From Eledone cirrhosa (lineage: Eukaryota), in the NCBI GenBank assembly GCA_964016885.1, contig OZ024740.1, positions 193,378,001-193,442,000 on the forward strand: DNA of 64,000 nucleotides. Direction: 5' to 3'. The position numbers and the translations under genes are program-made. Of this stretch, positions 9,819 to 14,830 are shown piece by piece. Positions within the stretch are counted from its first letter, which is position 1. Every line of letters begins with the position of its first letter. A model generated the notes under the pieces. The model did no database searches. It saw only the letters and a list, made by a program, of their open reading frames with translations, and had not been told where the DNA came from.

Positions 9819-12800
9819 GGTTGAAAAAAATGAAAACGAAATTTCATTTCTCACTCTTAGTTTGGCACTTACTTAAATGTAAGTATGTATGTATACGTAC
9901 ATACATATATGTATACAGACGTACAGTAGCATGCATATATATATATATATATATATATATATATATATATATATATATATATATATATATATATATATAT
10001 ATATACATACAGGTACACATATATATATGCACGCATCAGTTTAGTGGACGCTTATTATAACGCCGCTTTGTTTGTTTGTCAACAAACTGAACAGCTGAAT
10101 TTATGCCATACGGTGTTAAGGCAACCACGTCACCTTTTTGTTCAACAATGACACAGGAACGATGTACTAGTTTCAAGCTTGTTAGCTATCATCAGCACCG
10201 TTTACCCATCTGCCAGATAGTTGAACGTTCGAAAGTATATACTTTCCTTATTAAAAGTAACGGCTGAGCAGCCTTATTTGCATATTGACTGAGTTAAATC
10301 GGTCAGGCATACCGAAAACGATAAGTTGAAAAAAATGAAAACGAAATTTCATTTCTCACTCTTAGTATGGCACTTACTTAAATGTAAGTATGTATGTGTA
10401 CGTACATACATATATCTATGCAGACGTATAGTAGCATGCATATATATATATATATATATATATATATATATATATATATATATATATATATATATATATA
10501 TATATATATATATATATATATATATATATATATATATATATACATACAGGTACACATAACATATATGCACGCATCAGTTTAGCGGACGTTTATTATAACG
10601 CCGCTTTGTTCGTTTGTCAACAAACTGAACAGCCTGAATTTATGCCATACGGTGTTAAGGCAACCACGTCACCTTTTTGTTCAACACTGACACAGGAACG
10701 ATGTACTAGTTTCAAGCTTGTTAGCTATCATCAGCACCGTTTACCCATCTGCCAGATAGTTGAACGTTCGAAAGTATATACTTTCCTTATGAAAATTAAC
10801 GGCTGAGCAGCCTAATTTGCATATTGAGTGAGTTAAATCGGTCAGGCATACCGAAAACGATAAGTTGAAAAAAATGAAAACGAAATTTCATTTCTCACTC
10901 TTAGTATGGCACTTACTTAAAAGTAAGTATGTATGTATACGTACATACACATATGTATACAGACGTACAGTAGCATGCATATATATATATATATATATAT
11001 ATATATATATATATATATATATATATATATATATATATATAAAAACAAATAGCGAAACGAAATTAAATTTCGTTTCGTTTGTAACTCACTTTTGTATGAC
11101 TGACGCTTAAACAATTAAGTTAAAAATGTACATCCGCATTTGTATACTGAAATATTAGTATGCATATGAATACACACACGTATACATATGTAGATGTACC
11201 GAGTTTTTCACTGGTCACTTTACTGTGAGTGTCCAGCTATTCTGTATGTAAACACACAGACAAACCGGTTTTTAGAGTCATACTGGTTTTTGAGGAAACA
11301 CCTTTCCTCTATTCTCCAGAAAGCCAGACAAGGAATATTGAACTAGTTTCGATGTTGTTACATCTCATCAGCAATATTTACCTATCTTCCGGCCTTTCTA
11401 GAGAATCGTAAAAGCACATATCGTTATATGCTTTTTCTATGAAAATTAGTAGTGGGCAGACTAATTTGCATAGAGCGTGAGCACGTACCGTTTCAACGGA
11501 GACGATAAAAACAAATAACGAAACGAAATTAAATTTCGTTTCGTTTGTAACTCACTTTTGTATGACTGACGCTTAAACAATTAAGTTAAAAATGTACATC
11601 CGTATATGTATACTGAAATATTAGTATGCATATGAATACACACACGTATACGTATGTAGATATACCGAGTTTTTCACTGATCACTGTACTGTGAGTGTCC
11701 AGCTATTCTGTATGTAAACACACAGACAAACCGGTTTTTAGAGTCATACTGGTTTTTGAGGAAACACCTTTCCTCTATTCTGCAGAAAGCCAGACAAGGA
11801 ATATTGAACTAGTTTCGATGTTGTTACATCTCATCAGCAATATTTACCTATCTTCCGGCCTTTCTAGAGAATCGTAAAAGCACTTATCGTTATATGCTTT
11901 TTCTATGAAAATTAGTAGTGGGCAGATTAATTTGCATAGAGCGTGAGTACGTACCGGTTCAACGGAGACGATAAAAACAAATAACGAAACGAAATTAAAT
12001 TTCGTTTCGTTTGTAACTCACTTTTGTATGACTGACGCTTAAACAATTAAGTTAAAAATGTACATCCGCATATGTATACTGAAATATTAGTATGCATATG
12101 AACACACACACGTATACATATGTAGATGTACCGAGTTTTTTACTGGTCACTTTACTGTGAGTGTCCAGCTATTCTGTATGTAAACACACAGACAAACAGG
12201 TTTTTAGAGTCATACTGGTTTTTGAGGAAACACCTTTCCTCTATTCTCCAGAAAGCCAGTCAAACCGGTTTGTCTGTGTGTTTACATACAGAATAGCTGG
12301 ACACTCACAGTTAAGTGACCAGTGAAAAACTCGGTACATCTACATATGTATACGTGTGTGTATTCATATGCATACTAATATTTCAGTATACATATGCGGA
12401 TGTACATTGTTAACTTAATTATATATATATATATATATATATATACATACAGGTACACATACATATATGCACGCATCAGTTTAGCGGACGCTTATTATAA
12501 CGCCGCTTTGTTCGTTTGTCAACAAACTGAACAGCTGAATTTATGCCATACGGTGTTAAGGCAACCACGTCACCTTTTTGTTCAACACTGACACAGGAAC
12601 GATGTACTAGTTTCAAGCTTGTTAGCTATCATCAGCACCGTTTACCCATCTGCCAGATAGTTGAACGTTCGAAAGTATATACTTTCCTTAAGAAAATTAT
12701 CGGCTGAGCAGCCTAATTTGCATATTGAGTGAGTTAAATCGGTCAGGCATACCGAAAACGATAAGTTGAAAAAAATGAAAACGAAATTTCATTTCTCACT

Positions 12801-13725
12801 CTTAGTATGGCACTTACTTAAATGTAAGTATGTATGTATACGTACATACACATATGTATACAGACGTACAGTAGCATGCATATATATATATATATATATA
12901 TATATATATATATATATACATACAGGTACACATACATATATGCACGCATCAGTTTAGCGGACGCTTATTATAACGCCGCTTTGTTCGTTTGTCAACAAAC
13001 TGAACAGCCTGAATTTATGCCATACGGTGTTAAGGCAACCACGTCACCTTTTTGTTCAACACTGACACAGGAACGATGTACTAGTTTCAAGCTAGTTAGC
13101 TATCATCAGCACCATTTACCCATCTGCCAGATAGTTGAACGTTCGAAAGTATATACTTTCCTTATGAAAATTAACGGCTGAGCAGCCTAATTTGCATATT
13201 GAGTGAGTTAAATCGGTCAGGCATACCGAAAGCGATAAGTTGAAAAAAATGAAAACGAAATTTCATTTCTCACTCTTAGTATGGCACTTACTTAAATGTA
13301 AGTATGTATGTATACGTACATACATATATGTATACAGACGTAGAGTAGCATGCATATATATATATATATATATATATATATATATATATATATATATATA
13401 TATTTATATATATACATACAGGTACACATAAATTCAGGCTGTTAAGTTTGTTGACAAACGAACAAAGCGGCGTTATAATAAGCGTCCGCTAAACTGATGC
13501 GTGCATATATGTATGTGTACCTGTATGTATATATATATATATATATATATATATATATATGCATGCAACTGTATGTCTGTATACATATATGTATGTACGT
13601 ATACATACATACTTACATTTAAGTAAGTGCCATACTAAGAGTGGGAAATGAAATTTCGTTTTCATTTTTTCCAACTTATCGTTTTCGGTATGCCTGACCG
13701 ATTTAACTCACTCAATATGCAAATT
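9819..13725 (-). mobile_element. HHR tandem repeat family B (retrozyme-like), ~4.4 units of 474-540 bp with internal (TA)n, terminal inverted copy 13430-13725
   Basis: Units start at ~9820, 10325, 10864, 12765, 13239; HHR on minus at 10160-10200, ~10699-10739, ~12600-12640, ~13074-13114: CGGTG-CTGATGA-T-AGCT-aaca-AGCT-T-GAAA-CTAG-TA-CATCG. Confidence 0.85.
11041..12415 (-). mobile_element. HHR tandem repeat family A' (2.6 x 466 bp plus inverted partial 12262-12415), nested in the (TA)n of a family B unit
   Basis: Units start at 11041, 11507, 11973; HHR on minus at 11334-11378 and 11800-11844; family B resumes after (TA)n at ~12445. Confidence 0.88.
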
Positions 13726-13774
13726 ATATATATTTAAAGGTTATATATATACATATATATATATATATATATAT

Positions 13775-13995
13775 TTAAATGTTAAACAAGGTTCAATGAA
13801 TAAATCAAAGAATTAGTTTTACAATAGATTGGAAGCACTCAAAATAAAAGGTTTTCCGGAGTTATTAATATTAATTAAAAATATTAACAAAAATAGAACT
13901 TCTTGTGTTCAAGTATATTTTATTATACATATTTCAGAGGTACTGAGCTGACTTCAACAGTACGTCCTCATCAGATAAAATCAGATGATGCATGA
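13775..13995 (-). mobile_element. PLE pLTR fragment with hammerhead (13917-13981)
   Basis: Minus ATTTTAT-CTGATGA-GG..GTACTG..CAGTAC..-GAAA-TATGTA-TA-ATAAAAT; ends in (TA)n. Confidence 0.7.
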
Positions 13996-13999
13996 CATA

Positions 14000-14830
14000 C
14001 CCTGATATCGGCCGACTGAACTCACTCGATATGCAGATTAGGCTGCTCAGCCGTTAATAAGCATACGGAAAGTATAAACTTTCAGACGTTCAATCATCTG
14101 GCACGAAGGTATACGTTGCTGACGATAGCTAATAAGCATGAAACTAGTATAGCGTTCCTTTGTCAGTGTTGAACAAATGAGCAACGATGGTTGCTAGACA
14201 CTGTACGGCTTAATTCGGGATGTTTGTTTACAAACACACCGAGCATTATAATAAATGTTCGGTGAATCTATACGTACGTATATATATATATGTGTGCATG
14301 TATGTATGTTTCTATATACATACTACTGTACGTCTGTATACATATATGTATGTACGTATACATACTTAGATTTAAGTAACAGCCGTACTAAGAGTGATAA
14401 ATGAAATTTCGTAATATCGTTTTCGGTAACCCGGCCGATTTACTCACTCGATGTACAAATTAGGCTGCTCAGCCGTTAATATGCATAAGGAAAGTATATA
14501 CTTTCAGACGTTCAATCATCTGGCAGGAAGGTATACGTTGCTGACAATAGCTAATAAGCTTGAAACCTGTACAGCATTCCTTTGTCAGTGTTGAACAAAT
14601 GAGCAACGATAGTTGCTAGACACTGTACGGCTTAATTAGGGATGTTTGTTTACAAACCAACCGAGCATTATAATAAATGTTCGGTGAATCCATACGTACA
14701 TATATATGTATGCATGTATGTATATATATATACATACTATTGTACGTCTGTATACATATATGAATGTACGTATACATACTTGTATTTAAGTAACGTCCGT
14801 ACTAAGAGTGAGAAATAAAATTTCGTTTCA
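14000..14830 (+). mobile_element. HHR tandem repeat family C (2 x ~422 bp), diverged relative of family B
   Basis: ggctgctcagccgttaata at 14041 and 14463; HHR 14114-14154 CGTTG-CTGACGA-..GCT aata AGC..-GAAA-CTAG-TA-TAGCG; second copy degenerate. Confidence 0.8.

Follow-up and report, generated by a model that had tools for sequence, protein, structure and literature searches.

We analysed a 64,000-nucleotide stretch of the Eledone cirrhosa genome (assembly GCA_964016885.1, contig OZ024740.1, positions 193,378,001 to 193,442,000 of the forward strand; hereafter the window, numbered from its first letter), in which positions 9819-14830 carry tandem repeats of three kinds, A, B and C, with hammerhead ribozyme (HHR) motifs. 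A further array, A', lies downstream and abuts a Penelope-like element (PLE). The units measure 466 nt in A, 474-539 nt in B, where an internal (TA)n run varies, and 422 nt in C. Each insertion may consist of a ribozyme-sense arm and an inverted second arm, and the two unit positions at which arms were found to end are called site 1 and site 2. The arrays are laid out as follows.

9800-9818, no strand: (TA)n target run at the 3' end of the B insertion (from the sequence)
9819-11040, minus strand: B array, 3' part of the ribozyme-sense arm, with two HHRs (from a blastn map and the sequence)
11039-12263, minus strand: A array, 2.6 units of 466 nt with two HHRs, nested in the internal (TA)n of B
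12262-12420, plus strand: inverted second arm of the A insertion (unit positions 74-232), its site 1 end joined to (TA)n
12420-13414, minus strand: B array resuming 5' of the nested A insertion, with two HHRs
13427-13726, plus strand: inverted second arm of B (unit positions 67-372)
14012-14830, plus strand: C array, about 2 units of 422 nt
25786-32751, minus strand: A' array, 15 HHRs in 465-nt units
32752-35320, plus strand: PLE of the candidate partner family, 5'-truncated and frameshifted, with part of its 3' untranslated region (UTR) kept

The B array terminates at 9819, which is site 2 (unit position about 318), and is interrupted by the A insertion at its unit-internal (TA)n, while the 3' end of the nested A array is likewise site 2 (unit position 302). 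The inverted B arm is an exception: it ends at neither site and adjoins an HHR element of another kind, unrelated to B. At its 3' end the C array meets the 3' UTR of a Neptune-like PLE, not (TA)n. The A' units are 92% identical to A; their array has its 3' end at site 2 on (TA)n, and its 5' end stands head-to-head with the PLE at 32752-35320, with 3 nt of microhomology and no TA. This PLE encodes a reverse transcriptase (RT) and a GIY-YIG type endonuclease, and was assigned to the Hydra clade by motif only, from DKT and CxCx5C.

Eight type I HHR motifs were found in 9819-14830, four in B and two in A on the minus strand and two in C on the plus strand. The HHR of the A, B and C units is a canonical type I with C3-G8; a scan of the window with Rfam gave no match at the gathering threshold.

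10165-10195, 10704-10734, 12605-12635 and 13079-13109, minus strand: B HHR cores, U.U at the base of stem II, palindromic stem III; cleavage nucleotides 10165, 10704, 12605 and 13079
11341-11371 and 11807-11837, minus strand: A HHR cores, G-C at the base of stem II; cleavage nucleotides 11341 and 11807
14119-14149, plus strand: C HHR core, copy 1, core intact, stem II of only 3 bp; cleavage nucleotide 14149
14541-14571, plus strand: C HHR core, copy 2, with CTGACAA (G8 to A), a non-palindromic stem III and a stem I mismatch; cleavage nucleotide 14571

The initial annotation had given all of these HHRs the same GAAA-CTAG-TH stem III, which holds for seven of the eight and fails for the second C copy, predicted to be inactive and probably dead. 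The different stems I that it described are present and pair, as AATATTG/CAATATT in A, CGGTG/CATCG in three of the four B copies (the fourth has TGGTG) and CGTTG/TAGCG in the first C copy.

Kinship and predicted fold of A, B and C

The collinear blocks that had been quoted for the three families are real in alignments, although written on the strand opposite the ribozyme. After the HHR had been trimmed and (TA)n collapsed, local alignment of A with B/C (4 pairs, 300 dinucleotide shuffles) gave scores of 41-64 against shuffle means of about 21, and none of the 300 shuffles reached the observed score in any pair (z 7.4-14.2), so that the similarity claimed outside the HHR does exceed that of shuffled controls. 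With end-to-end scoring, A-B was significant (z 6.5 and 15.7) and A-C was not (z 0.4 and 0.5). Whole-unit identity, HHR included, was 64-67% for A-B and 65.5% for A-C, compared with 48.0 +/- 2.1% in 200 shuffles. These comparisons show, at the level of sequence, that A, B and C share ancestry across the unit. However, the proposed division into three diverged subfamilies stands only in setting A apart; B and C share 82% identity in aligned columns, intermediates such as genome locus L144 connect them, and the families of the window fall, on sequence, into two deep lineages, A and B/C. A conserved block was also considered as the remnant of an endonuclease C-terminus, and rejected; by eye the frame is not kept in A, and the block behaves as both motif and structure.

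Searches of the whole genome found 11,258 exact HHR cores of B/C type and 6,120 of A type, and the relaxed core occurred 40,092 times compared with 3 for a reversed control. Further lineages, designated H (435-nt unit), J and M, were found elsewhere in the genome by a profile search of masked flanks and a motif search. Identity within lineages ranges from 99% (B) down to 79% (M), with the figures for A, B and C inflated by the choice of copies through exact motifs, and this range is consistent with successive waves of amplification. A supposed 'family D' (948 cores), tried as a pseudo long terminal repeat (pLTR), turned out to be a C-type subfamily. Partial copies of two more lineages were seen in L257 and L316; the L257 copy combines H-like and B/C-like segments, a mosaic that suggests recombination between lineages, and the flanks of retrieved loci hold many more HHR families.

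All five lineages compared have the same layout, in which the octamer ATGCAAAT is followed 41-43 nt on by YATATA, with the HHR core 88-100 nt after the octamer. In 9819-14830 the octamer stands as follows.

12716-12723, minus strand: ATGCAAAT; also at 10276, 10815, 11464, 11930 and 13190
13717, plus strand: ATGCAAAT
14031 and 14453, plus strand: one-base variants of the octamer, in C

Upstream of the HHR, similarity was significant in 10 of 10 lineage pairs (z 2.4-16; weakest p 0.036), where the pairs involving J and M are not independent of the motif since both were discovered through it; downstream it was significant in 3 of 10. Genome-wide, the octamer-TATA pattern occurs 42,144 times compared with 4,169 for its control. 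The octamer segment has been tandemly multiplied independently, as repeats of about 29 nt in H (L279) and of 41-42 nt in M (L304 and L306). Tandem multiplication is common among enhancer elements. Newt satellite 2 has an octamer-containing promoter of the small nuclear RNA type, a point for which our literature search returned no confirmation.

To compare the predicted RNA structures, six units were folded as circles. All six were much more stable than 25 shuffles each (z -6.2 to -12.5), with 65-68% of positions predicted as paired and the same order of hairpins, and the antisense circular folds gave z of -3.7 to -7.0. When A and B/C were folded separately, 47 pairs were common to both, 11 of them with two-sided changes, although this covariation is drawn from only two deep lineages and thus represents few independent events. 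Six of the 11 lie outside HHR stems I and II, and three of these within an 8-bp helix closing the central domain. Non-HHR pairs predicted from B/C were canonical in 62% of A cells, compared with 30-45% when slid; in the reverse test, pairs predicted from A were canonical in 65% of B/C cells, compared with 33-50% when slid. The hairpin that holds the octamer has 10 pairs and zero two-sided changes, which suggests that it is under sequence constraint.

The units are non-coding: in doubled units the longest ATG frame spans 22 aa in A, 49 aa in C and, running through the TA repeat, 115 aa in B. Their GC content is below 50% (0.32-0.35 in the region), and end mapping revealed no long terminal repeats (LTRs), with no separate search for a primer-binding site or polypurine tract. 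The homology beyond the HHR, the further lineages with their range of identity and the retrotransposition signature at the insertion ends described below support the description of the repeats as an old, radiated superfamily of non-coding ribozyme retroelements.

Insertion ends and the candidate Penelope-like partner

Before the ends of arms were counted in loci of the genome, we dropped loci overlapping another locus of the same array, hits shorter than 35 nt or below 78% identity, hits that covered nothing but the TA core of B/C, and arms lying no more than 40 nt from the edge of a locus. In A, 41 of 43 arms from 28 loci ended at one of two sites (18 at unit positions 227-233 and 23 at 301-303). 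The same was found for 55 of 64 arms of B (41 loci; 25 at site 1 and 30 at site 2), 64 of 87 arms of C type (53 loci; 34 and 30) and 42 of 49 arms of H (30 loci; 12 and 30). TA repeats lay within 20 nt of the end in 38/43 arms of A, 58/64 of B, 54/87 of C type and 35/49 of H; within (TA)n a target-site duplication would be unreadable. Both sites align among A, B and C, at a spacing of 56-74 nt, and the spacing in H is about 30 nt, while the 5' ends of arms are scattered. Among 79 head-to-head pairs, 53 combined an arm ending at site 1 with one ending at site 2, two used the same site twice and 24 contained an unclassifiable arm; under the first site windows, before those of C and H were corrected, the tally was 28 vs 2 pairs (p 4e-7).

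The Hydra-clade PLE of this genome served as an internal positive control for this pattern. Its copies end on (TA)n at two positions separated by 80 nt; of 19 insertions with two arms, 17 combine one end with the other and none uses the same end twice. The repeats match it in the (TA)n target, in the scale of the spacing between the two sites and in the TTAT|C context at site 2. Copies of this PLE in L119-L126 and L081-L110 have a 3,553-nt period, an apparent U3-A8 HHR and a long palindromic stem III, and the family has left many tiny two-armed insertions, with junctions clustering in the HHR stem region.

The arms also record the state of the template. In 30 of 43 two-armed loci both arms cross the cleavage site; among the 13 remaining arms none starts at that site, eight starting at unit positions 10-83 and five having no match nearby. 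Because arms cross the cleavage site and none of the short ones starts there, the template was continuous across it, as either a circle or an uncleaved multimer. One insertion contains 18 full units over both arms, all identical. The A' array of the window has 40 private and five shared differences, and two of the five shared variants stand five units apart. Rolling-circle copying and later change at the DNA level both seem to occur.

Direct contacts between the repeats and PLEs were then considered. Three junctions of a B arm with a Hydra-clade PLE arm, without TA (L128, L172 and L321), fit the rule of one site each, and L320 and the A' junction of the window are unclassifiable by it; these counts leave out chimeras truncated in the HHR region. 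In the 5' flanks of 77 single arms, six had a PLE protein match, three of them co-oriented and at unrelated positions in the open reading frame (ORF), and no foreign upstream sequence was common to two of the 77 flanks at the junction. The octamer was absent from 15 of 16 long PLE loci. On balance, the active Hydra-clade PLE family of this genome is the best candidate for the partner, a choice that we judge about as probable as its opposite. Nearly as good a case can be made for some other PLE as the mover, either the very active Neptune-like family with a 777-aa frame or an unsampled one, and we hold this a little less than evenly probable. The genome has many PLE families (17,083 and 60,243 candidates at first look), one A arm in L025 stands head-to-head with a Neptune-like endonuclease fragment, and the orientation control for junctions (3 vs 2) is uninformative. 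What speaks for the Hydra clade instead is its match in target, spacing scale and site 2 context, and the fact that all three junctions obeying the rule come from it, insertion ends having been tallied for the Hydra-clade family.

Several other elements lie nearby. The Neptune-like PLE (14830-17739; L051-L080 and L111-L118), whose clade name is taken from a linker motif only, is present in many near-identical copies; its 3' UTR is rich in microsatellites, a second frame lies upstream, and its HHR appears to be a U3-A8 variant. A separate HHR element at 13790-14010 (minus strand; also in L239-L268) has a long stem II, a palindromic stem III, a long upstream region and two 3' end sites of its own on (TA)n, and stands head-to-head with the C array without TA between; a first look at the genome gave 1,817 candidates of this type. 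It was considered as a relative of A, B and C and rejected, having no homology with them beyond the HHR. Three further inverted-repeat elements (9050-9810, 2780-2960 and 20700-21010) carry an HHR-like motif on both arms. A third PLE family lies at 4364-7876 (RT 4989-6791, endonuclease 7190-7876) with an inverted 5' arm. Tandem repeats at 18451-19698 (496-nt units) and 23781-24158 (140-nt units) gave no HHR match in scans; the 140-nt unit resembles, by eye, the 3' UTR of another Hydra-type PLE in L005. Fragments of two non-LTR reverse transcriptases, presumably RTE-like and R4/NeSL-like, lie at 44900-45655 and 48931-51033.

Proposed mechanism and relation to known retrozymes

By the features compared, the repeats are non-LTR retrozymes, a kind already described: they are tandem units a few hundred bp long, each with a single type I HHR, are dispersed in high copy and have a self-paired predicted circle. 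Metazoan non-LTR retrozymes, according to the available text of PMC7229834, are likewise non-coding tandem repeats of low GC with one type I HHR each, thousands of copies and highly self-paired predicted circles; the units here lie at or above the 150-450 bp range given there. Expression and cleavage have been shown for those retrozymes, whereas the present repeats are known as genomic sequence. The text consulted of that paper is silent on an octamer, on (TA)n as target, on inverted arms and on paired 3' ends at fixed positions. It proposes PLEs as the mobilising enzyme, 'a strong candidate' (Cervera and de la Pena 2020, PMC7229834), and a recent preprint argues from co-occurrence and pLTR homology that retrozymes depend on PLEs (Li 2026). 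In that preprint most retrozyme families are sisters of particular pLTRs, whereas the five lineages of this genome are similar among themselves but not to the pLTRs of either PLE family examined; the insertion-end signature, which is the evidence here, was not analysed there.

The end pattern is that of PLEs. As far as the texts consulted describe them, Hydra-clade PLEs target (TA)n and leave tandem and inverted 5'-truncated arms (10.1101/2021.04.23.441226, PMC11167929), a PLE 'tail' occurs on one end only (Craig et al. 2021, bioRxiv 10.1101/2021.04.23.441226), and in vitro work has traced this tail to two internal RT start sites, cutting and extension taking place on both strands of the target (Frangieh et al. 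2024, PMC11167929). The one-end tail and two sites downstream of the HHR are common to PLEs and the present repeats, the tail being 56-74 nt in A, B and C and about 30 nt in H, compared with the 30-40 bp quoted for PLEs in these texts. Unlike PLEs, in which an ORF for RT and GIY-YIG endonuclease lies between pseudo-LTRs, the units have no ORF, and their HHR has C3-G8 in contrast to the apparent U3-A8 cores of the local PLE families, a variant described in the part of PMC4209133 available. The one-end tail in 53 of 55 classifiable pairs supports the view that these repeats work like PLEs without being members of them.

Taken together, A, B and C are homologous non-coding type I hammerhead tandem repeats, that is, non-LTR retrozymes, with two fixed ends joined to (TA)n, and we consider it likely that they are copied by a PLE reverse transcriptase/endonuclease. 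In the mechanism that we propose, the octamer and TATA-like module just upstream of the HHR would drive RNA polymerase II transcription of the arrays. Cleavage by adjacent HHRs, which would probably act as dimers held together by the palindromic stem III, would then set monomers free for a host ligase to close into circles. At the target, a dimer of the PLE protein would cut the two strands of a (TA)n run, and a cDNA would be primed from each (TA)n end, one at site 1 and the other at site 2. Either enzyme would travel round the circle for anything from less than one turn to many, after which the 5' ends of the two cDNAs would be joined head-to-head, and some arrays may later expand or be homogenised at the DNA level. 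The continuous template RNA would probably be a circle. Matching one query (11040-13340) to contigs of four runs, their kind unrecorded, gave many variant copies in one organism (organism A) and three contigs in another (organism B), which speaks neither for nor against expression of the units.

A promoter in this position has precedents in Schistosoma HHR SINE (short interspersed element)-like repeats and newt satellite 2, in which the portion of PMC6765202 at hand describes an internal promoter just before the HHR, an arrangement that makes a dimer the smallest source, and reports newt satellite transcripts as polymerase II products. The Schistosoma repeats use polymerase III (same source); in the present units, runs of 4-7 T argue against it.

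A number of observations weigh against this mechanism. The site windows were derived from the same data as the counts (for C and H after the first tally), the loci are the first exact-motif matches on one chromosome or best BLAST hits and therefore non-random, and the H query itself ended at site 2. The promoter is read from motif and spacing alone: by eye, no consistent initiator motif was seen 30 nt past the TATA-like motif in the five lineages compared, and in A, B and C the octamer also lies within a predicted RNA hairpin. No similarity of A, B or C to the terminal repeats of the Neptune-like and Hydra-clade PLEs was found in 30 short and 8 long loci per family, neighbouring retrozyme insertions aside. 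Retrozyme-PLE junctions were co-oriented in 2 control cases and head-to-head in 3, in L322 site 2 is used on both sides, and in L323 an older retrozyme copy seems to have been joined by a younger PLE arm, so junctions can arise through later insertion with target deletion. The circle is not required by any shown step: HHR mutants were without effect on PLE insertion in vitro in the text available of PMC11167929, and only 1 of 9 predicted Xenopus retrozyme dimers was cleaved in vitro (Li 2026). Finally, a 31-mer array has branching shared variants, which points to expansion at the DNA level or mixed templates.

These last points bear on an alternative in which insertion is driven by a PLE in the same way but the template is an uncleaved multimeric linear transcript, with long arrays arising by unequal crossing-over and the HHR and circle incidental. 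Read-through of the cleavage site suits such a multimer as well as a circle, the normal insertion of HHR mutants in the PLE system (PMC11167929, in part) and the branching variants of the 31-mer and two of the five shared A' variants five units apart fit it, and so do the U.U at the base of stem II in B and C and the broken core of one C copy. Nevertheless, two-sided changes preserve the pairing of HHR stems I and II from lineage to lineage, the HHR core is retained in all lineages sampled, and 18 identical units on opposite arms are most simply explained by one monomer template. Moreover, HHR_Amex2 of the axolotl also has U.U at the base of stem II and does cleave, more efficiently as a dimer, and circular forms of its RNA have been found (PMC7229834, in the text available). 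We regard the linear template as rather unlikely.

It is much less probable that the arrays are merely 5'-truncated tail ends, or pseudo-LTR tandems, of an ordinary autonomous PLE, a reading that in this sample is already largely refuted. In its favour are the insertion-end signature, identical to that of PLEs, the homology of Xenopus retrozymes to pLTRs (Li 2026) and the full-length reading of no more than two PLE families; against it, the units follow one another head-to-tail in up to 31 copies, the 77 flanks contain no ORF at a shared junction and the ATG frames are short. That A, B and C are ordinary AT-rich satellites, alike by chance or through a convergent ribozyme-like motif, is refuted by the shuffle and end tests, since the non-significant A-C end-to-end score and the weak downstream similarity are outweighed by the local similarity outside the HHR, the 40,092 cores against 3, the dispersed insertions with fixed homologous ends and the compensatory changes in a shared fold.

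Returning to PLE-driven copying of a circle, a more specific version is possible though doubtful. In it, the repeats would be a long-lived SINE-like superfamily of ribozyme circles with its own octamer-TATA polymerase II promoter, which radiated in waves independently of PLE sequence and parasitises a Hydra-clade PLE by structural mimicry of its two RT start sites; the protein dimer would prime both strands, roll round the circle and perhaps hold a retrozyme RNA together with its own RNA. Our literature search, subscription papers and supplements aside, found no report of the end signature, the cross-lineage fold or the octamer-TATA module for retrozymes.

The way in which animal retrozymes move has so far been a matter of hypothesis, built on the PLE proposal, co-occurrence and pLTR homology. 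With an autonomous PLE from this very genome as positive control, the pattern of two sites, one per arm, provides evidence at the genomic level for the mechanism itself. The in vitro PLE assay that already exists can be given exact start positions together with candidates for the enzyme and the promoter, so that the mobilising enzyme is now directly testable. If the mimicry of PLE start sites were true, this would be the first naming, in the literature searched, of an enzyme and its start sites for retrozyme rolling-circle retrotransposition.

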